This document shows, one piece after another, positions 5,485 through 22,952 of a DNA stretch of 64,000 nucleotides. This DNA comes from a virus (lineage: Duplodnaviria; Heunggongvirae; Uroviricota; Caudoviricetes). The stretch is taken from IMG/VR virus record IMGVR_UViG_3300014205_000201; one strand, written 5' to 3'. The position numbers and the translations under genes are program-made. The stretch's first letter is position 1, and each line of letters starts with the position of its first letter. The notes beneath the pieces were generated by a model. The model saw nothing but the letters and a program-made list of their open reading frames with translations. It searched no databases and had not been told where the DNA came from.

Positions 5485-5878
5485 TAAGGCACCAACTTAC
5501 TTTGTGGAATACGCTGGAGACAACTACAATGCCGATTTTTCTTTCGGCCATGTTTAAGGCATTTATGTTTCTCGATATATTCTCTATTTAACCAAAACTG
5601 GTTTTTCTGACAGAAGTACCCGAAGTAATTAATAACTCTAGCCAACAGGACACCAATATATTATCTATCCCTAACTTGTTAAAAGCTTTGCCATCAACTA
5701 TCAGCATATAACAATGTGATAATACAGATACTTGAACCTACACAAACTAACCCAATGGAAAGCAAATTAATTGTTAAAAAAAGAATTATATCACAACCGC
5801 CAATAAATATCATAAGTAAACTAAAAAAGAGAATTATGTTAATGATTTGATTTTTAACGGCTTGCTGCATTCATATTT

Positions 5879-5914: not shown

Positions 5915-6319
5915 TTAGTCTTTTATTTTATTGTGTTGTGGAAGATTTTTATACCCTTTATTTTCAGCGAAACACTTTTGGGTACAATAAATTTGCTTTT
6001 TGCTATTAGGTATGAACAATTTTTTACAATTTAGGCAAACTTTTGGTGCCCATAGTTCACCATTCTTTCGCTCTCGGATGTGATGTATTATAGAATTTTT
6101 TTTACGATAATATTTCATTGTTCGTTCAATCTCTTTTTGTGGATTATCTATGTATTGAAAATGGGCTGCTTCTAACCTTTCCTTCTGATGCTTAATGTAA
6201 GAGCGGTGTGCAATATCTTTGCTTCTTTCTAAGTTTGCATAGTAATATTGTTTGCCACGTTCTCGCTCTGCTTCTTTTTGTTTCTCTGTCATTTTGGCGT
6301 ATCTTTCTGCGGTTGGCAT
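5915..6319 (-). CDS. basic zinc-ribbon protein, possibly a degenerate HNH (HHIRERKNG ... CLNCKK ... CTQKC)
   Basis: Lys/Arg-rich; Cys pairs CLNC and CTQKC. Confidence 0.4.
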   Translation of the reverse strand: MPTAERYAKMTEKQKEAERERGKQYYYANLERSKDIAHRSYIKHQKERLEAAHFQYIDNPQKEIERTMKYYRKKNSIIHHIRERKNGELWAPKVCLNCKKLFIPNSKKQIYCTQKCFAENKGYKNLPQHNKIKD

Positions 6320-6582
6320 TATTTATTATCATCCATTTGACGTTTACATAGTATTATCTGAATAACACGAAATCCTAACTTAGATAATTCATAATAAACA
6401 ATGTCGCCCTTTTTTAAAGAGATTATCAATGTTCTAGCTTTTGCGCGTTTAAGCGTTTCATTTAGGATTTTATTATTATTTGTTGCGAAATATTTTTCTG
6501 ACAACGGCGTTTGGTATAACAAAAAAAGAAGGTCTGTATCTTCTTTTGTAAGCCTTTTACATATTTCTAATACTTTCGTCAT
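6319..6582 (-). CDS. hypothetical protein (87 aa)
   Basis: ATGA stop/start overlap with the upstream gene. Confidence 0.4.
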   Translation of the reverse strand: MTKVLEICKRLTKEDTDLLFLLYQTPLSEKYFATNNNKILNETLKRAKARTLIISLKKGDIVYYELSKLGFRVIQIILCKRQMDDNK

Positions 6583-6588
6583 TTTATA

Positions 6589-6879
6589 TCACTGATTACT
6601 CCTCATACGTTGACTCTCAGAATTATATTCTGGTGGCGCACGAGAGATATTAGGTACTCTTAAATTTACCATATACACACCTCTATGAGGAATAAAAATA
6701 TCAGTAGTATAACTCATCAACAAACTTGCAAACGATGTCATACCATATCTTGGCTCTTTATGAATTAAAAGATATATCTCTTTATTTTCTTTTAACACCA
6801 ATTCAAGTTGTTCTATCAAGGATAAATGATTATAGTAGAACTTTGTTTTAATATCTTTTTTTATTATAGCATCGTTCAA
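6589..6879 (-). CDS. hypothetical protein (96 aa)
   Basis: co-directional packing. Confidence 0.4.
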   Translation of the reverse strand: MNDAIIKKDIKTKFYYNHLSLIEQLELVLKENKEIYLLIHKEPRYGMTSFASLLMSYTTDIFIPHRGVYMVNLRVPNISRAPPEYNSESQRMRSNQ

Positions 6880-6898
6880 TATATGTCACCCATTTTTA

Positions 6899-7363
6899 TT
6901 ATCTATCCAAACTGTCAGTATTACTTTTTCCATAATACAATTTATTTAAGAAATCATTTATTTGGTTAAATGCATCATAGGCTTGGTGTACTCTTAGTTC
7001 ATCATACTTGGCAATTATTTTTTGAATGGCGAGTATTGATTTGTTATTAGAAATATTCAATCCAGATAACAAATTATCCATCATACTAACTGCTGAAGCA
7101 TATTGTCCTTTATCAAAACATTGTGAGATATTATTTACTTGTTCAGCAACACGCACAGGCCAAAGGCTATTTTTCATTGTATGCCCACCATTGAATGTGG
7201 CAAATGGATAAAGTTGGATAAATGAAATAAATCCATCCTTTTCACTTTTCAAAATCTGGCTTGTCGGAACAACTATGTAATCACTACTAAAATATTTAAC
7301 TAAATCTTCAATCACTGTTTTGTTTGAGCAAGTTATTTTTATTGTTAGTTTTTCACTTTGCAT
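6899..7363 (-). CDS. hypothetical protein (154 aa)
   Basis: co-directional packing. Confidence 0.45.
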   Translation of the reverse strand: MQSEKLTIKITCSNKTVIEDLVKYFSSDYIVVPTSQILKSEKDGFISFIQLYPFATFNGGHTMKNSLWPVRVAEQVNNISQCFDKGQYASAVSMMDNLLSGLNISNNKSILAIQKIIAKYDELRVHQAYDAFNQINDFLNKLYYGKSNTDSLDR

Positions 7364-7513
7364 TTATTTAATCACCTATTACTTTTAATGCACTATTACA
7401 TTTTCAATTGTTTTACTATCGTAATTATCCCAATCGTGCAATTCAATATGCAATCTGTAATGACTATACACCGTAAATCTGCGCCTACAGCGCTTACATT
7501 TATAAATCACTCA

Positions 7514-7735
7514 TTATTCACCTTTCGCGATAGTTATGTCCTTTGCAAAGGCAGCCTGTTCGCCTAGTTTATAATAGCAATATTCACGGTCTGTTGTTTT
7601 ATTATGGTTAGTCACCAAATCGCCCAGTATCTTTTCCAACATATGAAACATCTCATATGCTTTTGGTTGAGAGAAATCCAAGCAAGCAAATGCATTGGCA
7701 AGTTTTCTTATCTGATTATCTGTTAAGGTTTTCAC
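7514..7735 (-). CDS. hypothetical protein (73 aa)
   Basis: overlaps the next gene start by 4 nt. Confidence 0.4.
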   Translation of the reverse strand: MKTLTDNQIRKLANAFACLDFSQPKAYEMFHMLEKILGDLVTNHNKTTDREYCYYKLGEQAAFAKDITIAKGE

Positions 7736-8025
7736 TTTTCGACACCAGCTACATTAGATTGATTTTTATTTGGACTTAAATAGAAAACATATATGGAAGC
7801 TTCATTTGGATATTCACAGAACATTAATTCTTCTAATTGACTCCTGAGAGTACATAACGCTTTGTATGCTAACTCAGCCTTTTTTTCTCCTGCTTTTGCT
7901 CTCGAATATTTATTATGGTTTTCATTATGTATATCACACATTCTTGAAACTAACTTATCATTTAACTCATACAAGTTTAACCCAATTTTCTTATAGTAAT
8001 CCATTGTAAACTTTCCTTTTTGCAT
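7732..8025 (-). CDS. hypothetical protein (97 aa)
   Basis: SD AAGGGAG 8 nt upstream; IR motif just upstream. Confidence 0.5.
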   Translation of the reverse strand: MQKGKFTMDYYKKIGLNLYELNDKLVSRMCDIHNENHNKYSRAKAGEKKAELAYKALCTLRSQLEELMFCEYPNEASIYVFYLSPNKNQSNVAGVEK

Positions 8026-8027
8026 TG

Positions 8028-8336
8028 TTATGACTCCCTTTGTTTGTCACCAGTTACAGCCAAACTGTCAGTTGTTGGCATGTGATCAATGAGATACTGA
8101 AATTTCTTACCCTCGCCCATTCCATACTGATAACCAATAAGGAATATTGTGTGTTCGCATAAAGCGCTCGAAGTAAGCAGTATCTTTCCAAAGTTTTCAC
8201 CTATCTTGATCTTGTCATCGTTTTCTGAAGATACAATTTTGAAAAAAGTATTTTGTAGTAAATCAAGTTTTGCTTTATCTGAACAAGCGTTTTTCTTGTT
8301 GTTATTGGCACAGCATTGGTCACACATTTTATTCAC
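8028..8336 (-). CDS. Cys-rich hypothetical protein (102 aa; CDQCC...C)
   Basis: co-directional packing. Confidence 0.45.
   Translation of the reverse strand: MNKMCDQCCANNNKKNACSDKAKLDLLQNTFFKIVSSENDDKIKIGENFGKILLTSSALCEHTIFLIGYQYGMGEGKKFQYLIDHMPTTDSLAVTGDKQRES
8047..8071. promoter_or_regulatory. IR motif copy (tcaccagttacagccaaactgtcag)
   Basis: then SD AAGGGAG and the ATG at 8025 on the minus strand. Confidence 0.55.
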
Positions 8337-8353
8337 CAGAATCTCGATAATTG

Positions 8354-8809
8354 TCAGATAGTTTCTGGCGCAGTTAATCCTTTAGTGCAGAATCCTTTGA
8401 CTATTCCAGTTGTTGTGTCTATAAGAGTAATTTTACCGAACACGGGCATGTAAGGTTTAAGACTATTAATAAATTGGCAGTAGCTAGAGTAATCCTTGTG
8501 GATAGTAATTAAAGTATGAAAATCGATTGCTTTTGCGACCATGAGGACAGCAGCATTATTTAGAAGAAATGTTTTAGCGTCTGGCACATCAGCGCGTGTA
8601 TTGGATATTTCTATGAATGCCATAAGGGGCAATCCAAGTTTTGCGAAGTTAGGTACACATTGAAAATCAAGAAGGCCCTCCTGCTCTATCTTTTCTCTTA
8701 TTCTTGTTACGGTAGGTTGTGATACGCCAGCTATTTTTGCTACTTGACGGTCACTACCTCTTGGGCATTTCATAAATGCATTATATACTTTTTGTTTGTT
8801 TCCAATCAT
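8354..8809 (-). CDS. Lrp/AsnC-family transcription regulator (HTH + RAM-like C-term)
   Basis: RGSDRQVAKIAGVSQPTVTRIREKIEQEGLL HTH; 151 aa is typical size. Confidence 0.65.
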   Translation of the reverse strand: MIGNKQKVYNAFMKCPRGSDRQVAKIAGVSQPTVTRIREKIEQEGLLDFQCVPNFAKLGLPLMAFIEISNTRADVPDAKTFLLNNAAVLMVAKAIDFHTLITIHKDYSSYCQFINSLKPYMPVFGKITLIDTTTGIVKGFCTKGLTAPETI

Positions 8810-8880
8810 TTCAGATACACCATTTGAATAGTTAGTAATGTAGTGCTAACTTGTATATATAATTAACGATAAAAAGAGAG

Positions 8881-9183
8881 TTATCGTTTAAAGAAACGAC
8901 TCTTATTCAATATTAAATACGTAACGGCAAAGGTAGCTATCGAACAACAAATAACCGATTCAACACCAACCCAAAGACCACCAACAGCAACCGTTCTAAA
9001 ATCGCTAAGTGCCACCGTCATATTATACGCAGAACCAAACGCCTGGTTGGTAATATCGAATATTGCAGTTTCAGTATAGAGAACTATAGCAAGTTGACCA
9101 ATACCCCAACCGTAACCATTTATGATTAGCAGCAGTAAACAAACGGCAACTAAATTATTCTTTAACTTAGAGTTCATCATCAT
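8881..9183 (-). CDS. small membrane protein (100 aa)
   Basis: N-terminal TM; ATGA overlap with the upstream gene. Confidence 0.45.
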   Translation of the reverse strand: MMMNSKLKNNLVAVCLLLLIINGYGWGIGQLAIVLYTETAIFDITNQAFGSAYNMTVALSDFRTVAVGGLWVGVESVICCSIATFAVTYLILNKSRFFKR

Positions 9184-9419
9184 TCACCAGTTTTGTTGTA
9201 ACTGTCAATCTTTCTTTCATGCCACCAAATATAGAAGCCTAAACTAATAGAAATAATTACAGCGCCAAAAATTATGTAAGGCAAAATTGATATAAGATTT
9301 AGTGGCCCAGGGCAACCTTGCCAAGTAGTACAGCTATACTTAGCTGGATTAAAGAAGCGGTCTATCTCTTCCCACCAAGTTAAGTTTGCTAAATGCTGAT
9401 GCCAAGCTTCACTCAACAT
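9180..9419 (-). CDS. small membrane protein (79 aa)
   Basis: TM helix; Trp-rich. Confidence 0.45.
   Translation of the reverse strand: MLSEAWHQHLANLTWWEEIDRFFNPAKYSCTTWQGCPGPLNLISILPYIIFGAVIISISLGFYIWWHERKIDSYNKTGE
9184..9208. promoter_or_regulatory. IR motif copy (tcaccagttttgttgtaactgtcaa)
   Basis: abuts the start codon at 9183. Confidence 0.5.
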
Positions 9420-10051
9420 ACATCACCAGTTTTATCATTTTGCAATCTAACAGATAGACAGTCTTTACGACCAGCAACAAAAGAATGTGTATGATAAGCT
9501 TTTACAAGACTAGTATTTTGTACACCTAATTTTAATTTACCAGGTGGATCAATCAACCATGGTTTTTCTTTTATTATTAAACCACGCATTTCATCTTCTA
9601 ATTGTAAATATAGTTTTTCCCTAAAGATCGGATCCTTGTTTTTCTGTGAACGATAATCAAGTAATTTCATCAAAACAATTGCCCTTTCTTTTTTCTGTAC
9701 TAAATAGGGAATGATCTTTGGCAAAATAATTCTTTGAGCATTAGGATAAAAACGTAAGTCATACCCGATTGCAGCAACTTCACCCTCTCGTTTAAAACGC
9801 ATTACAACAATATTTCCCAAACCACAAATCGAGTTTTTTATAAATTCAATATTATGTTTATTCATACTATTTATATTAACACGAGGCTCAAGTTCATAGC
9901 CACGATTACTGCCTTTCCATTTTTTTAGAAGCTTAGGGTTCTTATAATGTCTAAAGAGCATTATACATCCTTCACCATCGACCATTCCAGCGAGATACGC
10001 CCATGTCGTTTCTGGTATAGTTATATCGATTGCCATCACATATTCCACCAA
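9413..10051 (-). CDS. free-standing LAGLIDADG homing-endonuclease-like protein (paralog of 13729-14280)
   Basis: WAYLAGMVDGEGCIML matches the LAGLIDADG consensus; shares IILPKIIPYLVQKKE with the paralog. Confidence 0.65.
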   Translation of the reverse strand: MVEYVMAIDITIPETTWAYLAGMVDGEGCIMLFRHYKNPKLLKKWKGSNRGYELEPRVNINSMNKHNIEFIKNSICGLGNIVVMRFKREGEVAAIGYDLRFYPNAQRIILPKIIPYLVQKKERAIVLMKLLDYRSQKNKDPIFREKLYLQLEDEMRGLIIKEKPWLIDPPGKLKLGVQNTSLVKAYHTHSFVAGRKDCLSVRLQNDKTGDVC

Positions 10052-10448
10052 TTACAACTAATTGGTTATTTATGAATTAAAAGCTTGTGCTCACTAGCCA
10101 CATTATCATAACTGTCACTCATTCTAGAAATCTCTTCTCAGGATGTTTGCTATAATAATAGTAAATCCCTAAGAAAATAAAAGGCACAGCAATCATACAA
10201 ATATAGCCTATTGCTGATACAATAGGATTTGATACTAAATCTACCACTTGTTTGTAGCCTTGTAATGCTGACATAGTCACTTATTCTCCATCTTATCGTC
10301 TGCATTTAACGGTAAGGTCCAGTAGGCCAATAGCCAAATACCACCGCTATAACCATTATTGCAATACCAGACGCGAACATTAAAGTTAGGGGTACAAGAA
10401 CCACTCCGGCTGGACCTTGATATGCTTCTTTTATTTCATTCCAAAACT

Positions 10449-10721
10449 TCATTTTAATTCCTCCGATTTATCTGTATTACTTAACATTAGAAAAGTTAGG
10501 GGAAGTAAAGTACCAGAAAATATAATCCCCACAGTACATATTGGCATTAGGATAATAACCCATGCCCATTGAGTATTCATTATTTCTGGTTCTACCCAAC
10601 CAGGAGTAATGAAATTATTGTATTCGTTGAGGCCGATATAGCAATAAATTAAACCAATAATACAAAGGACTAGCCATATAGCTAGAAAGATTCTGGTGAT
10701 TGTTACTTTTCTATCTCTCAT
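10449..10721 (-). CDS. small membrane protein (90 aa, 3 TM)
   Basis: hydrophobic; SD GGAAGG. Confidence 0.45.
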   Translation of the reverse strand: MRDRKVTITRIFLAIWLVLCIIGLIYCYIGLNEYNNFITPGWVEPEIMNTQWAWVIILMPICTVGIIFSGTLLPLTFLMLSNTDKSEELK

Positions 10722-10821
10722 TGTTTATCCTTCCCTGTTGGTTTGTTTTTAAATAAATAATTATAGAAACATAAAATATCTCTATACCAGATATGAATTA
10801 ACTCCCAAAGAAATTCTTCCA

Positions 10822-11121
10822 TTAAGTTTCCCCTTCTGATTGTTTGTCTGAAACCGATAACAAACTTTTACGCAAAAACTTAGCTAAAGCCACTGGGGGA
10901 TTATACCATCTATAAGCGAGTTGGCTATGAGGTTCTAAATCTAATCCACCCCAAACTTGTTCATACCGTTCTGCTATCTGGATTTTTTTACATCTACGGC
11001 ATTGGCGTATTCCGTCTATGGAGTAATTAGTAAATGGTGTCTCATATTCAGTGTCTGGATATGTTATTGTTTGTGTATCGGTGCTTAATATATTCCAGTT
11101 TCTAAAGTGAAGGCAAAGCAT
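10822..11121 (-). CDS. zinc-ribbon protein (CRRCKK), C-terminus SVSDKQSEGET
   Basis: shares its 3' 20-bp repeat with the next gene. Confidence 0.45.
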   Translation of the reverse strand: MLCLHFRNWNILSTDTQTITYPDTEYETPFTNYSIDGIRQCRRCKKIQIAERYEQVWGGLDLEPHSQLAYRWYNPPVALAKFLRKSLLSVSDKQSEGET

Positions 11122-11123
11122 AG

Positions 11124-11399
11124 TTATTTTTCCTCTGTTTGTTTATCCGAAACCGATGGTGTTTTAAGAAGCCATAATCCTATACTCCCAAAGAACCCAA
11201 AAATGATCGGACCAAATACTAACAAGTTATGAATGTTCGTCATTGCTGTTTTGTATTCTGTCGGTGCATAGTCTGGTGCGGCTCCAAAGTTAGTTAAGTA
11301 AAGGGCGGTAAATAATACCGCTAATATCCAAGCTATTATCGTAGTAATTTTTATGGCTGTATGTTCTTCTCGTATTTTTGGTATGTTTAAAGTTTTCAT
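11124..11399 (-). CDS. small membrane protein; start taken at the internal Met (MKTLNIP). The track ORF extends to 11441.
   Basis: SD GGAGA and an IR motif precede the 11399 ATG; C-term SVSDKQTEEK. Confidence 0.45.
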   Translation of the reverse strand: MKTLNIPKIREEHTAIKITTIIAWILAVLFTALYLTNFGAAPDYAPTEYKTAMTNIHNLLVFGPIIFGFFGSIGLWLLKTPSVSDKQTEEK

Positions 11400-11749
11400 T
11401 ATCGTTTTGTCTCCATTTGTTCGTCGCCAGAATGGGTACAATTGTCAATTGTTTTTTTGCTAACTTCCTTACGAAAAGCCAACAAACAATAACATGCAAA
11501 GAAGCCCAACAAGAATGGTCGAGAAACAACATTCGTCATCAATACTAATAACCACACATTTGCCGGTTGAGTAACCGAAACAGGAGTTGTAGGAAAAGTA
11601 AAATAAGCATACAACCCAAATGCAGAGGGTATACTTATAATAACAATAGTAAAGACAAACATTCCAAGCCAAATATATTTCATATACGGTTGGATCTTTG
11701 CAAAGTTATTATCTTGCCATGCGCTTAACCGATTTTTAGAGACAGCCAT
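11399..11749 (-). CDS. small membrane protein (116 aa)
   Basis: 3 TM. Confidence 0.45.
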   Translation of the reverse strand: MAVSKNRLSAWQDNNFAKIQPYMKYIWLGMFVFTIVIISIPSAFGLYAYFTFPTTPVSVTQPANVWLLVLMTNVVSRPFLLGFFACYCLLAFRKEVSKKTIDNCTHSGDEQMETKR

Positions 11750-12042
11750 TATTTATTAACCTCATCGGTTTTTAGTTGCTGGCTAGCCGAATTAATCAGT
11801 AAATAAAGTGCTACACAAAACATGCAAACAGATAGCACAGGAACAGAAGCAGAAACGTAAATCAACATCACTAACTCTGTAGTTTCAACTGATGTACCTT
11901 GAACACCATTCCAAGTAACAATAAAGCTAGTAATCAGTATTATTGAGCATCCCAAAGCAATTGCAACTAAAATTAATTTGAGGAGATTCTTTTTATCCAA
12001 AGAAGCCATCTCCCAAAAATATATCTTGCAGATCTTTAGCAA
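11749..12042 (-). CDS. small membrane protein (97 aa)
   Basis: TM helices. Confidence 0.4.
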   Translation of the reverse strand: MLKICKIYFWEMASLDKKNLLKLILVAIALGCSIILITSFIVTWNGVQGTSVETTELVMLIYVSASVPVLSVCMFCVALYLLINSASQQLKTDEVNK

Positions 12043-12235
12043 ACTCTTTACCGGTACGTTTACCAGGTAATGTCTTCTGATATGCTAAGTCAGCTTGAGA
12101 ATTAAACAACTCAGGAAAATGTTTAGTGCCAAATGTAGAATTATATATAGCCACAATCTCTATGAAACTGTGGTCTTGTTTTTCCCAGAGTTTAATTGCT
12201 GTTATTCTAGCTTGCCGGTTAGTATCTTCACTCAT
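11993..12235 (-). CDS. hypothetical protein (80 aa)
   Basis: overlaps its neighbour; the start is uncertain. Confidence 0.35.
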   Translation of the reverse strand: MSEDTNRQARITAIKLWEKQDHSFIEIVAIYNSTFGTKHFPELFNSQADLAYQKTLPGKRTGKEFAKDLQDIFLGDGFFG

Positions 12236-12720
12236 TATTTTTCTTCCTCTTTATTACTGACTTTTGGGACACATTTGGCAGTTGATGTTACCCAAAGCTT
12301 ATTCTTGTTTTTATTCTTCATGAACTTTTCACGCATCGTAACAACAGCCTTCATATCTCGATGGATCTTAGCCCAAGACTCGTTATGGCATGCAGACGAA
12401 TTTGAACCGCTAATGTCATAATTCTTCTCATCACTAAAGCAATAGATAGAATGTTTACCCTCTGTTTCAGCCCAATGCAATGTTGCATCGCAGAACCATA
12501 TATCCCACTCAGGAAAAGTGTGGGCTTTATAATAATCTTTGAAAGGCATATTAACGAATACTTTACCACAGGTTTTGCAGAACACTAAATAGTGTTTACC
12601 CTCCATGGCTTGCTCAATTAGTTTTTCCATCTCAGGTTGCTTATTGCTAAGAATGAAAGCAGCCATCTCGTTTTGGTTAGCTCGTTTTAAGTCTGTGATT
12701 AGTTTATCTTTTGCGCTCAT
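12235..12720 (-). CDS. hypothetical protein with CxxC (161 aa)
   Basis: SD cctcc(rc) at 12731-12735 and an IR motif upstream. Confidence 0.5.
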   Translation of the reverse strand: MSAKDKLITDLKRANQNEMAAFILSNKQPEMEKLIEQAMEGKHYLVFCKTCGKVFVNMPFKDYYKAHTFPEWDIWFCDATLHWAETEGKHSIYCFSDEKNYDISGSNSSACHNESWAKIHRDMKAVVTMREKFMKNKNKNKLWVTSTAKCVPKVSNKEEEK

Positions 12721-12739
12721 TGTTTCTTTTCCTCCACAC

Positions 12740-12764
12740 TACCAGATGGATACAAACTGTCAAA
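12740..12764. promoter_or_regulatory. IR motif copy (taccagatggatacaaactgtcaaa)
   Basis: SD at 12731-12735, then the start at 12720. Confidence 0.5.
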
Positions 12765-12784
12765 TATTAAAAATGCTAAAATCA

Positions 12785-13033
12785 TTACCATTCAACCTCG
12801 ATTTTCTCAATTGTAGTAATAGCAGAAATAAAACATATTGCGCTAGGCAGAGTTAATATCAAAGCGGTTTGGTTCAATTTATCTGATAAACCTATAGAGG
12901 CTTTAGATTGAGTAAAGCCACTTCCGCTAATTGTATTATAGTCAGCAATCCAAACTGCCGAAATTGCAAGCGCTAACACTATCCCAAATAGTATCAGAGA
13001 GATACATAGTAATATCAAAGTTATTTTCTTCAT
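12785..13033 (-). CDS. small membrane protein (82 aa)
   Basis: TM; SD + IR motif upstream. Confidence 0.45.
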   Translation of the reverse strand: MKKITLILLCISLILFGIVLALAISAVWIADYNTISGSGFTQSKASIGLSDKLNQTALILTLPSAICFISAITTIEKIEVEW

Positions 13034-13347
13034 TCTTTTTTATCCTCCATACATACACTGCCAGATGTTGTGGAACTGGTGTCGTGAATGTTACTATATC
13101 TTCTATCGATGTCAGCTAATATCCAACCATATGTTTTATCAATATCACACATATTCAACGCGAAAGCTACAGTGATGCATAGGAGAGTTATAGCCAACCC
13201 AATAAAGATCAAAGTAGGTGGTGGTAGTATAACTATCGTTGGAATACTACATATCGATAATAGCCATCGGATGTTTCTACGCTTATCTAACTTTTTGGTA
13301 AGCGGATCATACAGATTGTGATATTCTTTTAATATCGTTTCAGTCAT
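13030..13347 (-). CDS. small membrane protein (105 aa)
   Basis: 2 TM. Confidence 0.45.
   Translation of the reverse strand: MTETILKEYHNLYDPLTKKLDKRRNIRWLLSICSIPTIVILPPPTLIFIGLAITLLCITVAFALNMCDIDKTYGWILADIDRRYSNIHDTSSTTSGSVCMEDKKE
13058..13084. promoter_or_regulatory. IR motif copy (ctgccagatgttgtggaactggtgtcg)
   Basis: SD at 13044-13048, then the start at 13033. Confidence 0.5.
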
Positions 13348-13351
13348 TTAT

Positions 13352-13729
13352 TTAAAACCCCCAGAAATAACTCGTTTTATATTCTAGTTCGTAGGCTAGC
13401 CCGTAGGTTTCGTTGAATATAGCGATGTATCCTTTGACGTTACTAATATATGCTTGATAAACTGGCATTTCAGTTGTAACTTGTCGTGTGAAGTAAACAT
13501 AATCGTCTGTGGTTTGAATAACTGTTGGGCTATTCACAACACCATCATAAACTGTATAGCCTTGAATTTGTAGATCGTGCTTTGCCTGAGCATTAACTGT
13601 ATCACGATTATTTGCAGTAGCATATATGCCGGCGAAAAGACCGCCGCATAATACAACAATAATAGTAATCATTGCGGCAAATATAACAAGTCCGCCGTAT
13701 TCATCCCAAAATCCCCATTCATGCCCCAT
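13352..13729 (-). CDS. small membrane protein (125 aa)
   Basis: TM helix after the N-terminal segment. Confidence 0.45.
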   Translation of the reverse strand: MGHEWGFWDEYGGLVIFAAMITIIVVLCGGLFAGIYATANNRDTVNAQAKHDLQIQGYTVYDGVVNSPTVIQTTDDYVYFTRQVTTEMPVYQAYISNVKGYIAIFNETYGLAYELEYKTSYFWGF

Positions 13730-14280
13730 TATTGTTTATCCTCCTTGCCAGTTAGCAGTATTGTTGGCACAGATTTTTTATACCATTTATAATGATTTGT
13801 TGAATGAGAAAATTTAGTACCATCCCAAATTGGTAAACGATAATATTTCCAGAATTGCTGTTTTTCTTGAGCCATCTCAAACAGAGCATAAAGTTCTTTT
13901 CTTCTCTGCTTTATATTTAAGTTATTAAGAACATGATTCGATTCTAAAAGATTAACCCATTCAAGATATATTTCAGCTATTTCCTTTTTCTGAATAAGAT
14001 AAGGAATAATATTAGGTAATATTATCTTTGCTTCATTTGAACGGAAACGTAGATAGTAAGTAAGAACTTTTCCGACTTCATGTTGCTCCTGTATCTTTCC
14101 CAACTTTAAAAGATATTGTAGGTCAAGCAAATTTTGTAGGTTCATATTTGAAATATTAAATTGACTCTCGCCACTTAAACGGTCTGTTCCGTTTATCTTG
14201 CGTTTACGTTGAGAGATATTAATACAACCCTCGCCATCAACAAAGCCAGCTAGATAAGCCCACACTGTTTCTGGTATCAT
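13729..14280 (-). CDS. free-standing LAGLIDADG homing-endonuclease-like protein (paralog of 9413-10051)
   Basis: WAYLAGFVDGEGCINIS; IILPNIIPYLIQKKE. Confidence 0.65.
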   Translation of the reverse strand: MIPETVWAYLAGFVDGEGCINISQRKRKINGTDRLSGESQFNISNMNLQNLLDLQYLLKLGKIQEQHEVGKVLTYYLRFRSNEAKIILPNIIPYLIQKKEIAEIYLEWVNLLESNHVLNNLNIKQRRKELYALFEMAQEKQQFWKYYRLPIWDGTKFSHSTNHYKWYKKSVPTILLTGKEDKQ

Positions 14281-14444
14281 TTTGTCAGCTTCCCTGAAAT
14301 AATTTGTATTTGGTCGCCAGTAATCTTTAGACTAACTTTTACACTCTTAGTCACTTTATCATAAACATAAACGAAGTGAGTATCAATTGTAGGTTCATAA
14401 TATGAGTGTAATCCTCTAAATCGTGCTTTAGTTTTGTCAGACAT
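14277..14444 (-). CDS. small protein; start taken at the ATG at 14442-14444 (MSDKTKAR). The track ORF uses a GTG at 14459.
   Basis: ATGA overlap with the LAGLIDADG gene. Confidence 0.35.
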   Translation of the reverse strand: MSDKTKARFRGLHSYYEPTIDTHFVYVYDKVTKSVKVSLKITGDQIQIISGKLTK

Positions 14445-14492
14445 TATTTGCACCCACACAATATTTGCTTATTAATGCTAATAAGGTTATCG

Positions 14493-14726
14493 CTACCTCG
14501 GCAGTGAATTGTCAGATTGTTTCGGATTAAGAAACTCTTGAGTAAAAATTCGTTTTATCGCTTCTGGCGCTTCGTGGTCTTTTACTATCGCGATATAAGC
14601 ATCAGTTAAAGCGTCTGCGGTAGCATGTGCATAAGTTGATCCATAGAAGCGATAAGCTGCTTTATAGGCTTGTTCTCGGAATTTCTCGGCTTCTTTATCA
14701 ACAAGTTTTTCCCAGTCGGCGCTCAT
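14493..14726 (-). CDS. hypothetical protein (77 aa)
   Basis: co-directional packing. Confidence 0.4.
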   Translation of the reverse strand: MSADWEKLVDKEAEKFREQAYKAAYRFYGSTYAHATADALTDAYIAIVKDHEAPEAIKRIFTQEFLNPKQSDNSLPR

Positions 14727-14998
14727 GATTCTACCTTCTTAATTGGTTTATCGTAATTGTTTAATGAATCAATAAGATCCCCAACTACGGTTGCAGCATA
14801 GACAGGGTTAGATGATATACGAACTAAGTATTCACGTTCTCCATTAAGCCACTCCACCATAGCCTCTTTGACTTCCGATTCAAAGAACAGCTTTTCTTTC
14901 TGTCTTCGTGTGAAGCATATATCTTCACTTCTGCGAAGTCGGCAGTATAGCCAACCCCTTCTATTTAGAATTGTCGTAAAGTTTGGTTCTTCGCTCAT
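14723..14998 (-). CDS. hypothetical protein (91 aa)
   Basis: 4-nt overlaps with both neighbours. Confidence 0.45.
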   Translation of the reverse strand: MSEEPNFTTILNRRGWLYCRLRRSEDICFTRRQKEKLFFESEVKEAMVEWLNGEREYLVRISSNPVYAATVVGDLIDSLNNYDKPIKKVES

Positions 14999-15462
14999 TG
15001 TGGTTTTCCCTCACCAGTTGGTGTAATTCTGTCAGTTGATGGAAATAGAGAATTGAATTGATCCTTCACTAATTCAAGTAACCCCTGGGCATGTTCGATA
15101 TTATACATCCCATCATCATTGAGCCATTTACGAAATGCCTCAACTTTATTGTCAGCCAGTTTGGGTTTCTCAAGATGATACTGCTTACTAAAGCGGTTTA
15201 CTATTTCATAACCATCTGCAAGCATCGCATCTAGATTAGGTTGCGCTCCTGTTGTTGTTAACTCATAAATGAAAACATTGCTAACTTGTTTAGGTGGAGT
15301 AACGGTAACTGGTTCGATAAACTCAGTGTATTCTTTTGATTGACAAAATGGGCAAACATAACTCTCTAATGTTGTTTCGCCTACTGCAAGACCTGAGCGA
15401 ATTTGTTTAGCTGTATGAACAAAGGTTTTCTTACATTCGTTATTTAGGCATTGATACTTCAT
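14995..15462 (-). CDS. zinc-ribbon protein (CLNNEC...CPFC), 155 aa
   Basis: two CxxC pairs; IR motif upstream. Confidence 0.5.
   Translation of the reverse strand: MKYQCLNNECKKTFVHTAKQIRSGLAVGETTLESYVCPFCQSKEYTEFIEPVTVTPPKQVSNVFIYELTTTGAQPNLDAMLADGYEIVNRFSKQYHLEKPKLADNKVEAFRKWLNDDGMYNIEHAQGLLELVKDQFNSLFPSTDRITPTGEGKPQ
15011..15036. promoter_or_regulatory. IR motif copy (tcaccagttggtgtaattctgtcagt)
   Basis: 13 nt upstream of the start at 14998. Confidence 0.55.
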
Positions 15463-15752
15463 TTCACTATCTCCTTAGCTTTATCACCAGTAAGTTCTGA
15501 ACTGTCGGTTACTACACCGTTTGAAGCAAAAACAGGATTATTCCTCTGAGAATAACCTACGATAGTAAAGATTATCCCAGCAAAGAGAAATATGCAGCCA
15601 CCGAGAAAAGATAGGTTCCCAATGTTCTGGAACCCGCTGCTAACTTGAGGATAGTCTAATGCTACCTGGAACGTTGCGAAGCTAGCGCCGAAAAGAAGCA
15701 AGCTACCAATCACCATTACGATTCCGCCAATCATTATATTATTTGTTTTCAT
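15459..15752 (-). CDS. small membrane protein (97 aa)
   Basis: 2 TM; SD GGAGG + IR motif. Confidence 0.45.
   Translation of the reverse strand: MKTNNIMIGGIVMVIGSLLLFGASFATFQVALDYPQVSSGFQNIGNLSFLGGCIFLFAGIIFTIVGYSQRNNPVFASNGVVTDSSELTGDKAKEIVK
15484..15508. promoter_or_regulatory. IR motif copy (tcaccagtaagttctgaactgtcgg)
   Basis: 22 nt upstream of the start at 15462. Confidence 0.5.
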
Positions 15753-16186
15753 TACTTTTGTTCCTCCACAGTTTTATTGCCAGTTGACAATGAAGTGGTG
15801 GCAGCATCTTTCTTTTCTTGTGCTAATGCATAAAGCTGCTTAGCGGCAGCAAAACAAGCTAATACCTGAACACCAGATAAATTAGCGTTATAACGTTTAT
15901 TAGGAACTACTCTGGCATCAGATGGACATGCTTGTTTAGCAACAGCCCATAAAAGATTCGCGGGCTTGGTTGGATCATGAATAACTGTGGTCTTATGAAT
16001 CTTCTCATTTAATCTATCCTCAACTTTCTTGTTTAAAGCCTTAAGATTCTTTTTAGGCAATTTTAGGAGTGCATCTACTTCTGGATTGCGAAGCTGTAAT
16101 CGCTTAACTAATGGGGCGATGATGTCTAGTTTTTCTTGTTGTTCGGCTTTAGATTGTTCACGGATAACTTCAAGGGCTTCAGTCAT
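15752..16186 (-). CDS. hypothetical protein (144 aa)
   Basis: co-directional packing. Confidence 0.45.
   Translation of the reverse strand: MTEALEVIREQSKAEQQEKLDIIAPLVKRLQLRNPEVDALLKLPKKNLKALNKKVEDRLNEKIHKTTVIHDPTKPANLLWAVAKQACPSDARVVPNKRYNANLSGVQVLACFAAAKQLYALAQEKKDAATTSLSTGNKTVEEQK
15778..15801. promoter_or_regulatory. IR motif variant (tgccagttgacaatgaagtggtgg)
   Basis: then SD GGAGG and the start at 15752. Confidence 0.45.
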
Positions 16187-16391
16187 TGTCGATTCTGTTC
16201 CTGTTTCTTTTTAGCTCGATAGACACGTTTGTCATCACGCCATTTTTGGCGTATTACTTGTTTAATTTGTTCAGGTGATAACTCCATATGTTAGCATCCT
16301 TTTTTGTCTAAGACCTTATTGTCCGAGACCGCATTTAAGGTTTGCTATCGCTTGCTTGATTTAAATATTAAAAACAATTATTACCATAAAA

Positions 16392-16595
16392 CTATAACTT
16401 CTTTGTAATCTTTACACGTTCACGCCATCGATGGATGTAATCCGCAAGCATATCATAAAGTTTTTTTGCAATGTTTGTGACGAATACTGTGAAGACAGTC
16501 ATGCATCCGAGAGTGGTGTAATCAATTGTTGACATGCTAATAGTATAGGACAAAATGTACTTAAAAAGATATTCAAATAAAAAAAGAGAAGTCAA
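16392..16595 (-). CDS. small membrane protein (67 aa)
   Basis: TM. Confidence 0.4.
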   Translation of the reverse strand: MTSLFLFEYLFKYILSYTISMSTIDYTTLGCMTVFTVFVTNIAKKLYDMLADYIHRWRERVKITKKL

Positions 16596-17128
16596 GGAGC
16601 TAACTGAACATCGTCAGTATGTGTAACAACAGTATCTCCGTTATCAGCATTTTTATAGTATTGGTAAGTAACAGTATAGTTTAGGCCAATAGCATAGTTA
16701 GCGTTGCCCTCAATTACAAAACTGTTACCATCTGAAAATAATATATGAGTATTAGATACTGATCCGCCATAGCCTGTTTGATCGTAAGTTATTACTGCTA
16801 GAGTACCTGTAAAATGACCTATTTGTATTGTAGGTGTAGGCTGTGCGGTTGGTAATCCTAAATCAATATTGTTTCCAGCACCAGAAATAAGTACAGTCCC
16901 TATGATAAGCGCTAAGGCAAAAATAGAGATAACCGCTATAATTGGAATAATGCTTATGCCAGAAGGACTAACTGAGCCGCTGTGATAGCTGTATTCTTTT
17001 GTTTCCTCTTCAATTGCTTCTTCTTCATTTTCTTGTTCTTCTTCTGGTTCTAAATCTTCTTTTGGTTTAGTAGGTTCTGGCTTCTGCTTTTGTTCTGGAT
17101 TTTTTCCAACTTTTCTTAAATCTCTCAT
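16592..17128 (-). CDS. membrane-anchored protein with an acidic N-terminus (178 aa)
   Basis: Glu-rich N-term, one TM, beta-rich C-term. Confidence 0.5.
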   Translation of the reverse strand: MRDLRKVGKNPEQKQKPEPTKPKEDLEPEEEQENEEEAIEEETKEYSYHSGSVSPSGISIIPIIAVISIFALALIIGTVLISGAGNNIDLGLPTAQPTPTIQIGHFTGTLAVITYDQTGYGGSVSNTHILFSDGNSFVIEGNANYAIGLNYTVTYQYYKNADNGDTVVTHTDDVQLAP

Positions 17129-17153
17129 AGATAAATCTCCATAAAATAAAAAA

Positions 17154-17309
17154 TTAGAGTTTATCGATAGTGACTCGAACTTTATCTTCAGCCTTAATTA
17201 AGCTTCTAGCTGCTTTAGGCACAGCTAAACGCCCATCATTACCAAAGATACCTTCAAGCACTATACGTTTCTCAGTCGCTTCAATGATTTTTACAGATTG
17301 TTTCGGCAT
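17154..17309 (-). CDS. AbrB/MazE-type swapped-hairpin DNA-binding mini-protein (51 aa)
   Basis: hand-translated: MPKQSVKIIEATEKRIVLEGIFGNDGRLAVPKAARSLIKAEDKVRVTIDKL. Confidence 0.5.
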   Translation of the reverse strand: MPKQSVKIIEATEKRIVLEGIFGNDGRLAVPKAARSLIKAEDKVRVTIDKL

Positions 17310-17554
17310 ATTTTAAACCTCAGTGTGATAAGATGTTCTCCTGTATCTTCCGCTAGCCTCCGCAAAGCCACACTTGACGGCCATGATAGGAGAGAATCAA
17401 GCTTGCATATCCAGACCTTGATGCAAGATTGGTCTTAGGCGTTGATTCCGTTTTGAGGCTGGATGCCTTTTGAATTAGCAAAGTGGACATGGGGTTCCGC
17501 CTTGCATATTTTAAGGCAACAATGTGGCAGATTGGAAGTTGTTGGAAGCATATC

Positions 17555-17812
17555 TCAGGACATCTTATCGAAGCGTTTGTATCTTTGTAGTATTCCGCGC
17601 ATGGTTTCCATTTGTCTTCTGGCTGCTTCTGGTTCAAGGAGAGGATCTTTTTGCGTGTCAACGATTTGTGTTAGTTCCAGGATTGTGAAGCATAGTTCTT
17701 CTATGGTTCTTTCAGGGGTGTTTAGTCCTGTGGTTTTTGCTAGATCCGTCAGGATAGATAAAGCTCTTGGGCTTAAATCGCCCAAGTTTATGGTTTTTTG
17801 GTTTGTAGACAT
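17555..17812 (-). CDS. hypothetical protein (85 aa)
   Basis: between the SPFH gene and the AbrB-like gene. Confidence 0.4.
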   Translation of the reverse strand: MSTNQKTINLGDLSPRALSILTDLAKTTGLNTPERTIEELCFTILELTQIVDTQKDPLLEPEAARRQMETMRGILQRYKRFDKMS

Positions 17813-17825
17813 TTGTTAGGTTCTC

Positions 17826-19250
17826 CTATACTATGTCTGAATCATATCCAGTGTTTGATCCTTTGGTTTCGGCTTTTGGTTTTTTGGTAACTGATGGGGC
17901 TGCGGTTGCAAGTTTTTCAACGGTGTCAGTTGCGTTAAGGATTGGGGATGTGTTCTTGCCAATGTTTTCTAGGATCTTGTTGATGTCTAATCCCATATCT
18001 TTTGCTACTTCGGACATTGTGCCAGCGCCAAATCCAGTTTGAGGATTAAGGATGCCACTATCTGCACCACTGTAGACTTTTATTTGCGCTTGTTTCATCG
18101 CTTCTGCCCATGCGTTTGCTTGTACTTTTTTGATTTCAACTGTTGCTTTGATTACTTCTAAGCCCATACCTGCATCGTTATATTTTTTCATTGCGTCGGC
18201 GCGTTTTTCGGTTGCGGCTGCTTCTGCAAATCCAGTGGCTTGAACTACTGCTGCGTTGGCTTCACCTTGTACTTGTTTGACTTTTGCTTCAGCTTGCCCT
18301 TTTTGATATGTTGCTGATGCTTCTCCTTCAGCCTTGGTGATTGTTGCTTGTCTGTCGATTTCGGCTTGGCCCACTGTTAATGCGCGTTCGGCTTCGATTT
18401 GTTTGGCGTTTGCTCTGGCGGTTGCTTCTTGTACTTGTAAGTCTTTTTCTTTAGCCTTTAGTTGTACTGCTTTGTCTTTTTCTTGTTCTTTGATACCGAT
18501 GGCTTCTTGTGTTGCGATTTGCGCTTCTCTGTAAGCTCTTTCGTTTGTTGCTTTGTTTACTTCTGATTCTTTTTTAGCTGTTGATTCTACGATTGTTGCT
18601 TCTTTTTCTTGTCCGGCGACTGCCTTTCGGGTTTCGGCGTTGATGATGCTTGATTGTCTTTCTTCTAAGTCATGGATGACTGTGTAGCCTTCGATATCTG
18701 AGAAGTGGATGACTTCTAATTCGATTACTTTCATGCCCCATTCGCCAAGTTCTTCGTTGACTGCTTTTTCTACGCTTTCGCTAAATTCTTTGCGTTTCTT
18801 CATAATGTCAATGATTGTGTAACCCATAGACATGTTTCGGGTGACTGCTTTGATTACGTTGCTTACATCACTGTCAACTTCTGTTAGGCTAACTTTTGTG
18901 CTGACTCTTTCTGATGCTTGAAGCGGATCGGTTATGTTTAGCCATGCTACCACATCGCCTGCGAACTTTGCCATGTTCATATCGCGTAGAGGGATGTTGT
19001 CTACTTTGATTTGTAAGTTTTCTAATGGTATCTTTGAGATTTGCTGTATGATTGGTATGCGCCAGTAGCTTGAGCCTGAATAGCCTGTGCCTTCGCGGGT
19101 ACAGTAGATGCGTCTACCTTTTGATCTGGTTACGACTACATGCGCTTCGTTAGGGGGTACTACGGTGTAGCTTGATTTTACTGCCAATAGTACGATGACT
19201 ATAGGGATTACTATTGCCAATAATGGCAAGATAATGTCTGTTTCGCTCAT
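17826..19250 (-). CDS. SPFH/band-7 (flotillin-like) membrane protein, 474 aa
   Basis: N-terminal TM, SPFH-like core, long E/A/Q-rich coiled-coil flotillin-type C-terminus. Confidence 0.65.
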   Translation of the reverse strand: MSETDIILPLLAIVIPIVIVLLAVKSSYTVVPPNEAHVVVTRSKGRRIYCTREGTGYSGSSYWRIPIIQQISKIPLENLQIKVDNIPLRDMNMAKFAGDVVAWLNITDPLQASERVSTKVSLTEVDSDVSNVIKAVTRNMSMGYTIIDIMKKRKEFSESVEKAVNEELGEWGMKVIELEVIHFSDIEGYTVIHDLEERQSSIINAETRKAVAGQEKEATIVESTAKKESEVNKATNERAYREAQIATQEAIGIKEQEKDKAVQLKAKEKDLQVQEATARANAKQIEAERALTVGQAEIDRQATITKAEGEASATYQKGQAEAKVKQVQGEANAAVVQATGFAEAAATEKRADAMKKYNDAGMGLEVIKATVEIKKVQANAWAEAMKQAQIKVYSGADSGILNPQTGFGAGTMSEVAKDMGLDINKILENIGKNTSPILNATDTVEKLATAAPSVTKKPKAETKGSNTGYDSDIV

Positions 19251-19382
19251 TTATTTTCTCTTCCGTTTATTAGGTGTAATTTAGGTATATGTACACCGCT
19301 TAAAAGGTTTTGGGTATAACAACTAAGGAATATAAAAGCAAAAGTTAAATGCATAAACCAACAAACGTTAACTTGATATATA

Positions 19383-19595
19383 ATGACCAAAGATAAATGG
19401 ATTCAATCAGTAGCCCCAACAAAAGGAGCACTCCATAAACAACTCGGCTACAGCCAAACAGAACCCATACCCAAAAAAGTATTACATGACATCGTAGGCA
19501 CCAACATAGGAAAACACAGCCATGGTCATACTGTAACGCCATTACTTAAACAACGGGCAAACTTCGCATTGAACGCACAGAAACGCCGGAAGTAA
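19383..19595 (+). CDS. hypothetical basic protein (70 aa)
   Basis: first gene of the plus-strand block. Confidence 0.4.
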   Translation: MTKDKWIQSVAPTKGALHKQLGYSQTEPIPKKVLHDIVGTNIGKHSHGHTVTPLLKQRANFALNAQKRRK

Positions 19596-19822
19596 TACCA
19601 TGTATAAGGAATACCGCTTTCCAATCCAAGACGAAACGAAAGCGCGGCGAAAACAAGAAGAACTCCAAAAAACCTACGGTGTAAAGATCCCCGCCTATAA
19701 GATTCAGACGGCTAGTGGCGACCAGTGGTTCTCGCTGGTGTATCCAGAGGGATTGCAACCAAAGGTTAAAAAACGTTGATTCACCAGTTTATTCTGATTT
19801 GTCAGTGCATGGAGAAATATAT

Positions 19823-19942
19823 ATGCAAAAACTAAATGATTTAGATGCTAAACAATATTACTGCATAAAATGCGGAACCAAAAAAGTATCTACCGAAAAT
19901 TCAGTCTGCGAAGACTGCTACCTAGATGGATACCAGAGGTGA
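19823..19942 (+). CDS. zinc-ribbon mini-protein (39 aa; CIKCG...CEDC). The track ORF 19715-19942 is probably N-extended.
   Basis: SD GGAGAA 7 nt upstream of the ATG at 19823. Confidence 0.4.
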   Translation: MQKLNDLDAKQYYCIKCGTKKVSTENSVCEDCYLDGYQR

Positions 19943-20135
19943 CACAAATACGCCGAAAACAGAAAAACCAAAAATTAGCCCCACTCAAATACGCATGGGA
20001 ACACAACACGAATTAGAACACACCAGCAGCCGAACCGTAGCTAAAAAAATTGCCATGGATCACCTAAATGAGCACCCAAAATATTACACCTACCTAAACA
20101 AGATGGAAAACCAAATGAAGCGAAAAGGTATATGA
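19926..20135 (+). CDS. hypothetical protein (69 aa)
   Basis: co-directional packing. Confidence 0.4.
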   Translation: MDTRGDTNTPKTEKPKISPTQIRMGTQHELEHTSSRTVAKKIAMDHLNEHPKYYTYLNKMENQMKRKGI

Positions 20136-20241
20136 ACGATTCAGGTTACCTAATTCTCGCAACAGTCACAGTCATCTCATGCATATTATGCTATATTGTT
20201 TGTCTACGATTATCCAAAAATAGCTTAGGTTCAAATGAATA

Positions 20242-20742: not shown

Positions 20743-21101
20743 TAAAACTTAAATGTAATAAGCGCCAATATGGTTGTTGAGTGATAATTAAGCCCGTGAT
20801 GTTAGCTACCAATCTCCGTTTTTGCAAGCCAATATTCTACCTTGAGTTATCTTCATTTTGGTTTTAACCTAGCTAATGGAGTGGGATATATCACTCACTT
20901 TTCACTTCTAAAAGTAACCTTTTTATGCATAAGCAAGCCATCTCTATTTTAGATAGATATGACCGGATTTAAAGAACAAGCCTCAGACATGACCAAACGC
21001 TACACAAAAGAAGTAATCGGCTCATCCAGCCCACATTTTGAACCAGCACAAGCAGCCATAAACAAAATCCCCGACATGTACGCTCCAGAAGAAAAACTCG
21101 C

Positions 21102-21112: not shown

Positions 21113-21120
21113 GCTAAACC

Positions 21121-22140: not shown

Positions 22141-22152
22141 TCCCAATCAGGC

Positions 22153-22947: not shown

Positions 22948-22952
22948 AACTA

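Follow-up and report, generated by a model that had tools for sequence, protein, structure and literature searches.

Small-gene array and compact family A24 peptidase of an 87-kb virus-like element, and prepilin-like hairpin proteins of its relatives

The stretch of DNA analysed here, 64,000 nt of the IMG/VR virus record IMGVR_UViG_3300014205_000201 (the window in what follows), is part of a virus-like element of ~87 kb and contains an array of small genes at 8881-17128 and a gene at 20242-20742 for a polytopic protein with a GGAD motif. An earlier note had proposed, as one hypothesis, that the array encodes pilin-like or membrane-remodelling proteins and that the polytopic protein is the peptidase that processes them. 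The array comprises 26 genes, every one on the minus strand and coding for 34-207 amino acids (aa), and the gene calls of JGI and ENA agree with the list of open reading frames (ORFs). Seventeen of the 25 junctions overlap or are no more than 4 nt wide, and a Shine-Dalgarno (SD)-like motif is present at 21 of the 26 gene starts, consistent with the co-directional, tightly coupled arrangement that the note described. The two LAGLIDADG genes it had recognised encode free-standing homing endonucleases, both on the minus strand. The product of 13729-14280 matches PF00961 (E = 3.9e-10, 41 bits versus a cut-off of 23.1), and that of 9413-10051, with a sub-cut-off match to the same family (E = 0.006, 17.8 bits), is a paralogue of the former (BLASTP E = 3e-19).

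The membrane content of the array is lower than the one to three transmembrane (TM) segments that the note had assigned to almost every ORF. By Kyte-Doolittle hydropathy (19-residue window, threshold 1.6), 13 of the 26 proteins contain a hydrophobic segment, seven of them two and six of them one, and the product of 16392-16535 is borderline. Ten proteins are soluble (those whose coordinates begin at 10718, 10822, 11993, 12235, 14277, 14493, 14723, 14995, 15752 and 16183), and CxxC pairs are present in several of the small soluble ones. What stands of the claim is a moderate enrichment of membrane proteins relative to the rest of the window (13/24 versus 29/130, Fisher p = 0.002). Additional TM genes lie just beyond the array bounds (4711-5870), and the boundaries themselves are arbitrary, as the co-directional train continues from 19250 past the window start. 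The train is headed by 17826-19250 (minus strand), which encodes a 474-aa SPFH/Band 7 (flotillin-like) membrane protein (PF01145, E = 1.6e-20) that has an anchor at its N-terminus and an extended coiled region rich in Ala, Glu and Lys. In the 245-nt gap at 17310-17554, predicted folding is no stronger than for shuffled sequence (z = -0.9).

None of the small array proteins matches a Pfam family at its cut-off, the best match being a sub-threshold one to DUF3185 (15459-15752), and none has a relevant match in PHROG or PADLOC. An all-against-all BLASTP search among the small membrane proteins gave no paralogous pairs at E<0.1. Two array genes have homologues in distant related elements, whose loci we designate by L numbers. 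The 79-aa single-TM protein of 9180-9419 (minus strand) has a 70-aa homologue at 3904-4116 of L006, near the L006 peptidase (BLASTP 41% identity over 37 aa; E = 5.6e-6 locus-wide, 5e-9 pairwise), and the 47-aa weakly hydrophobic protein of 16392-16535 (minus strand) has a 46-aa homologue in L018 (E = 6e-4 locus-wide, 6e-7 pairwise), 0.6 kb downstream of a hairpin gene of the kind described below. These homologues indicate that at least these two are real genes.

The gene at 20242-20742 (plus strand) encodes a minimal member of the family A24 GxGD aspartyl proteases, the class III or prepilin type, with 166 aa and six helices. The suspicion of an A24 peptidase was borne out by the comparison that the note had suggested: the protein aligns to PF01478 (Peptidase_A24) over residues 41-130 with 28.0 bits, above the gathering score of 26.5 (E = 3.1e-6), and Pfam gave nothing else at E up to 0.1 apart from a sub-threshold match to DUF3553. 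Its catalytic-motif residues are D23 and D95 (GGMGGAD), both invariant in alignments of 5 and of 47 sequences, and G93, K97 and P107 are likewise invariant across the 47. A search of the PDB with the single sequence returned nothing, and a profile was needed for the match to FlaK (PDB 3s0x), in which D23 and D95 are aligned with D18 and D79 as counted by hand after 7 residues, the assumed offset at the N-terminus of the 3s0x chain, had been subtracted. We take D18 and D79 to be the catalytic residues of FlaK.

An AlphaFold model built from the 47-sequence alignment has six helices, with a predicted local distance difference test score (pLDDT) of 93.6 and a predicted template modelling score (pTM) of 0.89. 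Foldseek placed FlaK 3s0x at the top of its PDB matches to this model (probability 1.00, template modelling scores 0.61/0.55), with the next match at probability 0.20, and found a single match among predicted viral protein structures, A0A5Q2W8A6 (141 aa). No N-terminal methyltransferase or Cys-rich domain of the PilD type is present, and D23 follows directly after the first helix. The window copy alone carries a 13-residue insertion after D23, which is modelled as a β-hairpin and is absent from the closest aligned relatives. No PHROG matches the protein, and it does not match NCBIfam NF040695 (the FlaK equivalog, cut-off 330 bits), to which its relatives score 19-29 bits. By its sequence, 20242-20742 is a member of family A24 and not a FlaK orthologue, and it is a genuine and probably active class III signal peptidase.

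Four close homologues share 48-55% identity with this peptidase, and the homologues P0002-P0005 carry a precomputed PF01478 annotation. An exhaustive profile search recovered 440 relatives at E<1e-3, of which 111 reach E<1e-10. The 35 best matches are mostly 141-171 aa long, and proteins of FlaK/PibD size (about 240-275 aa) appear lower in the list. The contigs on which the short (141-171 aa) A24 subfamily has so far been found all have a virus-like or orphan gene content.

In two other lineages, the gene of this peptidase subfamily adjoins a conserved small gene or lies less than 1 kb away from it. A gene for a protein of ~90 aa, starting MKNILANKKG/AGGVVVVLISMMVMLLVGIIVVN… or MKSLKSLLHSKAG/AGG… (the slash marks the cleavage-type junction here and below), is located immediately upstream of the peptidase in L005, L006, L007, L022 and L023, whose peptidases are 36-38% identical to that of the window where this was measured. 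The encoded hairpin family consists of two-helix membrane proteins of 90-104 aa with a canonical class III leader (KKG/AGGVVVV) and N-x-T sequons in the loop. Its 85 homologues, at 60-95% identity, have a variable leader and a conserved [KR]x[GA]/xGG junction and mature part. AlphaFold modelled a hairpin protein as two long helices, and Foldseek with this model returned generic helical hairpins only. Hairpin genes are located at 307-582 in L005, 2725-2997 in L006, 2112-2396 in L007, 10001-10285 in L018, L022 and L024, 10001-10378 in L019 and 1730-2044 in L026. In L026, which represents a third peptidase lineage, the hairpin protein is a divergent member (ANKSG/FTQVLIAIVVV; family hidden Markov model E = 3.7e-11) encoded 0.9 kb away from the peptidase.

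Immediately downstream of the peptidase, a conserved gene for a 3-TM protein of 93-98 aa is present in L004, L006, L022 and L023; the first ~500 nt of L004 were left out as context, being GC-rich, encoding 'MGSEMCIRDR…' and apparently an adapter or chimeric assembly artefact. The hairpin and 3-TM genes also lie close together in L018, L019 and L024 with no peptidase, and are adjacent in L018 and L024, so that the peptidase looks like an accessory insertion beside the hairpin gene. The hairpin family is carried on virus-like contigs of 20-33 kb and, as P0225, on a provirus-like island beside a CTP synthase gene in a 412-kb contig; P0225 is labelled at NCBI as a protein of a Candidatus Bathyarchaeia archaeon. 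In a 22.4-kb element (L022, JGI 3300037067; L023, SRR6484325), hairpin, A24 peptidase and 3-TM genes stand in a row, and this element shares the JGI sample and the SRA run with the 87-kb element. The 87-kb element and the small hairpin-bearing elements have in common domains of large surface proteins, a 4-TM protein of 426 aa, glycosyl- and methyltransferases and small ORFs. The hairpin protein is probably the major structural protein of these related elements or a pilin-like protein.

In the window, the peptidase gene has a different setting. It lies on the strand opposite to the array, ~3 kb from the upstream end of the latter. Its upstream neighbour, 19926-20135 (plus strand), encodes a small DUF5661 protein (PF18905) that is 92% identical in L008 and contains the motif HELEH; being HExxH-like, this could be a tiny metalloprotease-like protein. 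The downstream neighbour, 21121-21618 (plus strand), encodes a Gly-rich soluble protein of 165 aa that is 75% identical in L008 and resembled in position and composition by a protein of L003. The other members of the module are a 52-aa protein ahead of the Gly-rich one and, after it, a protein of 128 aa, a tyrosine integrase and a DnaA-like protein of 337 aa. The module recurs around the homologous peptidase in L008 and partly in L003 (replication protein 51% identical), and a Band_7 gene occupies in L008 the position that 17826-19250, divergent from the module, has in the window. No small-membrane-protein array accompanies the peptidases of L003 and L008 on these short contigs.

The array and the rest of the window were compared with the class III leader. 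In a strict and a relaxed version, regular expressions for G or A (or S) followed by 16 or more uncharged hydrophobic residues were run over every start codon of all ORFs, and the same scans recovered the hairpin proteins of L005-L007 and L018-L026. No canonical class III leader (K/R at -2/-3 and G/A at -1, ahead of some 20 uncharged hydrophobic residues) was found in 8881-17128, and the prepilin-type cleavage sites that the note had asked for among the small proteins were not seen. Four array proteins have a Gly directly before the first helix, in the genes beginning at 10306 (PAG/VVLV), 13352 (YGG/LVIF), 15459 (IGG/IVMV) and 16592 (PSG/ISII). They do not have the basic residue typical of archaeal class III leaders and are a weak lead rather than evidence.

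Three of these four deserve description. The 48-aa single-TM protein of 10306-10452 (minus strand; KEAYQGPAG/VVLVPLTLMF, no basic residue at -2/-3) is the best match in the window to the leader and first helix of the hairpin family, although a non-significant one (hmmsearch E = 0.1-0.4; hhalign probability 1.8%). The 178-aa protein of 16592-17128 (minus strand) has a charged N-terminal region of 57 residues, a Ser/Gly-rich stretch, one TM segment and a β-rich domain. The Ser/Gly-rich stretch ends in G (SVSPSG/ISIIPIIAV), a comparable pre-cleavage stretch is present in the hairpin-family member P0237, and 16592-17128 may speculatively be listed as a non-canonical substrate candidate. The 125-aa protein of 13352-13729 (minus strand), with a short acidic leader ending in GG (DEYGG/LVIFAAMITIIVVL), one TM segment and a β-rich domain, resembles a pilin in outline with a non-canonical leader; it has no match in Pfam or PHROG.

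The only canonical [KR][GA]/hydrophobic N-terminus found in the window by the motif scans is that of 57109-59460 (minus strand), which encodes a putative secreted or surface protein of 783 aa (MNTIKTKA/LAMGLTLIILL) with no match in Pfam or PHROG. It is thereby the one substrate candidate of the window at the level of motifs, but because its class III-like start is followed by a Sec-type AxA site (PTATA/I), the signal type is ambiguous. A hairpin-family orthologue was not found in the window: the best real ORFs are 10306-10452 and 10449-10721 (hmmsearch E = 0.1-0.4), and hhalign probabilities to the family stay below 3% for every window ORF of up to 200 aa. Both ORFs were considered as family members (E = 0.16-0.4) and rejected as not significant, at <2% by hhalign. 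Outside the window, one protein shows possible weak homology to the 3-TM protein (E = 0.035).

The element is represented by two independent assemblies with the same genes, the JGI contig Ga0378408_0000526 (87,133 bp) and an ENA contig (87,147 bp). Their coordinates are mutually offset (permuted), suggesting that the ~87-kb element is probably a complete circular genome. The G+C content of the window is 31-42%. Leftward of 19250, and on beyond the window start, every gene is on the minus strand, and the plus strand predominates from ~19380 to 37700. Window positions 1-3044 belong to a 1522-aa minus-strand gene that extends past the window edge; 687-2185, considered as a non-coding gap, was rejected since it is located inside this gene. 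A Pfam scan of the 149 window ORFs matched 25 families in total, including glycosyltransferases, SPFH/Band 7, DUF5661, RNA ligase, an SSB-like OB fold, Dam, Vsr, tyrosine integrase, PKD, LAGLIDADG/NUMOD3 endonucleases and Peptidase_A24. Neither a T2SSE assembly ATPase nor a T2SSF platform protein was found by Pfam in these ORFs or in the JGI Pfam matches of the flanks, and no VirB4/VirD4, VirB6, TadC or FlaI/PilT conjugation genes appear in the Pfam results of the window or the flanks.

A set of 50,697 phage records contained no match to 8000-21000 by megablast or to the peptidase by tblastn. Scans of IMG/VR yielded no relatives for any of four queries (peptidase profile, replication protein, 783-aa protein, hairpin family), and scans of GTDB species genomes yielded none for the peptidase profile or the replication-protein alignment. 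The 87-kb element has genes in common with the provirus-like island of the 412-kb contig. Its host is probably an archaeon, for which Bathyarchaeia is our best guess.

From these observations, we consider it moderately probable that the array and the peptidase are two separate things. The array is best explained as 26 lineage-specific orphan genes in a long translationally coupled train, into which two homing endonucleases were inserted, and not as a pilin family. Judged from their composition, its products would most likely be accessory proteins acting at the host membrane, in exclusion, membrane remodelling, egress or the envelope. By analogy with FlaK and PibD, the peptidase would act at the cytoplasmic face on precursors inserted in the membrane, removing a short basic leader that directly precedes their hydrophobic N-terminal helix, and the cleavage would free the mature protein for exit from the membrane and for assembly. 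Synteny in two other lineages points to the two-helix class III hairpin protein as the likely substrate class of the short A24 subfamily. The 87-kb element may have lost a recognisable copy of the hairpin gene, or may never have had one, while the peptidase sits in an integrase/replication module. The substrate here could be an element protein whose leader is ambiguous or non-canonical (57109-59460, 10306-10452, 16592-17128 or 13352-13729), a prepilin of the host or a hairpin protein from a small co-resident element. The general notion that an element encodes a class III substrate together with its peptidase holds in the sister lineages but applies to a different protein, one without a detectable orthologue in the window.

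Several points weigh against this interpretation. The TM calls come from hydropathy only, and the orphan status of the array genes was judged from Pfam, PHROGs and PADLOC and from the few related loci compared. The element-wide substrate search covered 78 of 87 kb, and since no element substrate was recognised in the window, the role of the peptidase here is assigned by analogy only. The window lineage itself (the window, L003 and L008, with short contigs) shows no hairpin gene beside the peptidase, and the 13-residue insertion beside D23 could alter or abolish activity. As for the element, no capsid, portal or terminase hallmarks are present among the Pfam and PHROG matches of the 149 window ORFs; without a recognised virion hallmark gene its virus-like nature is not proven, and it could alternatively be a plasmid-like integrative element. 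The host assignment is indirect, and hairpin-plus-T-run sites resembling terminators, which are not typically archaeal, number 28 in window positions 6000-25000 against 11.8±2.8 expected.

A broader reading, which we put forward tentatively and regard as possible rather than likely, is that the short A24 subfamily marks an undescribed maturation route in a new Bathyarchaeia-associated virus group. A hairpin structural protein would be trimmed by a virus-encoded peptidase, and the 87-kb giant relative would keep the enzyme for its own divergent small membrane or surface proteins, such as some array members or the 783-aa protein.

It is about as doubtful that the peptidase targets host proteins, supplementing or replacing an enzyme of the PibD/FlaK type for host prepilins or archaellins. 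Such an activity would alter surface filaments and hence adhesion, competitor exclusion or receptor display, or permit growth in hosts with weak class III processing. The lack of a canonical element-encoded substrate in the 78 kb searched fits this reading, as does the location of the gene among integration and replication genes rather than structural ones. Bathyarchaeota have been reported with simple Aap-like pilus systems (bioRxiv 10.64898/2026.04.22.720090), and a precedent exists for the reverse arrangement, in which pilins of provirus SNJ2 are processed by the host PibD (PMC12426801). However, in the sister lineages the peptidase gene is inserted directly next to a substrate gene of the element itself, and no host substrate can be named.

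The model of the earlier note, in which small membrane proteins of the array are pilin-like or envelope precursors matured by the A24 peptidase of the element, is in our judgement quite unlikely. It draws on the Gly before an uninterrupted hydrophobic helix in four array proteins, on 10306-10452 as the best, if non-significant, real-ORF match to the hairpin leader, and on the long leader of P0237 with a Ser/Gly pre-cleavage stretch like that of 16592-17128. In related elements, a small membrane-protein substrate does accompany this peptidase subfamily. Nevertheless, a Gly will often stand at a helix boundary by chance, and no array protein combines a basic residue at -2/-3 with G/A at -1. The proteins show neither paralogy nor a common N-terminal domain, their hhalign probabilities are all below 3%, and half of them have no TM segment. 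Position on the opposite strand, motif and the conservation of a separate module in L003 and L008, with no pilus assembly ATPase or platform gene in the element, thus do not support an array-peptidase system.

Holins, exclusion proteins and the pyramid-forming egress proteins of archaeal viruses usually take the form of small proteins with one or two TM segments. A reading in which the array encodes holins, egress or superinfection-exclusion proteins and the peptidase-like protein is degenerate and non-proteolytic would account for this form and for the unique insertion beside D23, and it seems to us very improbable: neither PHROG nor PADLOC gave a match to holins or exclusion proteins, and the invariance of both Asp residues, the GxGD glycine and K97 in 47 sequences argues for retained catalysis. 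Its membrane-acting array half is compatible with our preferred explanation of two separate things, and only the inactive-peptidase half competes with it. There is a similarly slim chance that the 87-kb element acts as a helper or mutualist whose peptidase processes the hairpin proteins of 20-33-kb elements in the same cells, for although the hairpin-bearing 22-kb element (L022/L023) occurs with it in sample 3300037067 and run SRR6484325, many hairpin-bearing elements have no peptidase of their own and several genes are common to both kinds of element, a shared metagenome is not a shared cell and the co-occurring 22-kb element has its own peptidase.

Other features of the window were noted alongside. 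The octamer ACTGGTGA occurs 12 times against 1.3 expected, a count reached in 0 of 100 shuffles. Most copies form the end of a motif of ~25 nt, (C)TGACAGTT-N7-AACTGGTGA, that contains an inverted repeat and is located on the minus strand at 8047-8078, 9184-9208, 15011-15042, 15484-15515, 19781-19812 and 27892-27916 and on the plus strand at 37850-37874 and 38035-38059. Some copies of the octamer stand directly 5' of start codons (SD-like GGTGA) and three are antisense to local genes; the latter suggest that it may be a regulator binding site and not merely a ribosome site. The motif forces '…TGD/E…' tails onto the upstream proteins. Sigma-70-like promoters are not enriched in 6000-25000 (70 versus 66). 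The only Rfam match in the whole window is a tRNA-Asp (GTC) at 33891-33964, within the plus-strand block (31 bits versus a threshold of 29).

The proteins of 49272-50171 (299 aa) and 55801-56979 (392 aa) are paralogous (E = 8e-26). They were considered as capsid proteins and rejected, as their alignment shows tyrosine-recombinase motifs (HGLRHxRT…Y), and with the Pfam-detected integrase at 22153-22947 the element has three recombinase-like genes. Three further proteins, at 34687-35211, 36414-37160 and 39650-40231, are paralogous to each other (E down to 4e-13) and encoded on both strands; PHROG gave three 'endonuclease' matches in the window, and these paralogues may be further homing endonucleases. 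Very large orphan proteins of 1522 aa and 1083 aa and a 754-aa β-helix protein are encoded in or beside the window (L016 10642-20449; L014 1-159), and a glycosyltransferase cluster, a radical SAM enzyme and a methyltransferase adjoin it. Together, these genes suggest heavily glycosylated surface or virion proteins.

Class III signal peptidases have been known as cellular enzymes of pili and archaella and on a few conjugative elements. New here is a compact A24 peptidase on virus-like elements that have no filament machinery, located in sister lineages beside a conserved prepilin-like hairpin gene, and this pairing of a mobile minimal A24 subfamily with prepilin-like hairpins in related archaeal elements is modestly novel. 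It suggests that some archaeal viruses borrow prepilin maturation for particle building or for changing the host surface, and the L022-type hairpin protein with its peptidase offers a concrete candidate enzyme-substrate pair. The small-membrane-protein array itself is a typical orphan-gene block for which a pilin annotation is unwarranted. In the literature, within an incomplete coverage of it, we found no virus-encoded class III peptidase and no capsid-like protein with a class III leader.

Among known systems, thaumarchaeal integrative-conjugative elements carry a class III peptidase together with pilin-like genes, and they also carry VirB4/VirD4, VirB6, TadC and FlaI/PilT (PMC6563490), none of which is present in the 87-kb element. 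The provirus SNJ2, of a temperate archaeal virus, encodes the pilins PilA1 and PilA2, whose processing by the host PibD changes host surface behaviour (PMC12426801); there the virus provides the substrate and the host the enzyme, whereas the 87-kb element encodes the enzyme and its window no canonical substrate. The hairpin protein has the same outline as the VP1/VP3-type capsid proteins of Fuselloviridae, including the Bathyarchaeia 'Huangdivirus' (PMC10541130): ~90 aa, two hydrophobic helices with a short loop, N-x-S/T sites and glycosyltransferases nearby. This likeness to the capsid proteins of spindle-shaped viruses is one of outline only, and it concerns the related elements, the window having no hairpin gene.

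JGI annotates the window peptidase as 'Flp pilus assembly protein protease CpaA', and the bacterial Flp prepilin peptidases TadV/CpaA are similarly small and likewise have no methyltransferase domain. In contrast to these systems, Pfam finds no tad/cpa genes (ATPase, platform, Flp pilin) in the element, the sequence and structure matches point to the archaeal FlaK, and the putative substrates of the relatives have archaeal-type [KR][GA]/ leaders rather than the Flp type, G/xTAIEYGLI. With FlaK and PibD (MEROPS A24B; FlaK PDB 3s0x), the window peptidase has in common the Pfam family, the catalytic Asp pair, the GxGD motif and the helical fold. It differs from them in its length of 166 aa versus roughly 230-240 aa, in being without the extra soluble domain of FlaK, and in being located on a mobile virus-like element rather than in a cellular archaellum or pilus locus.

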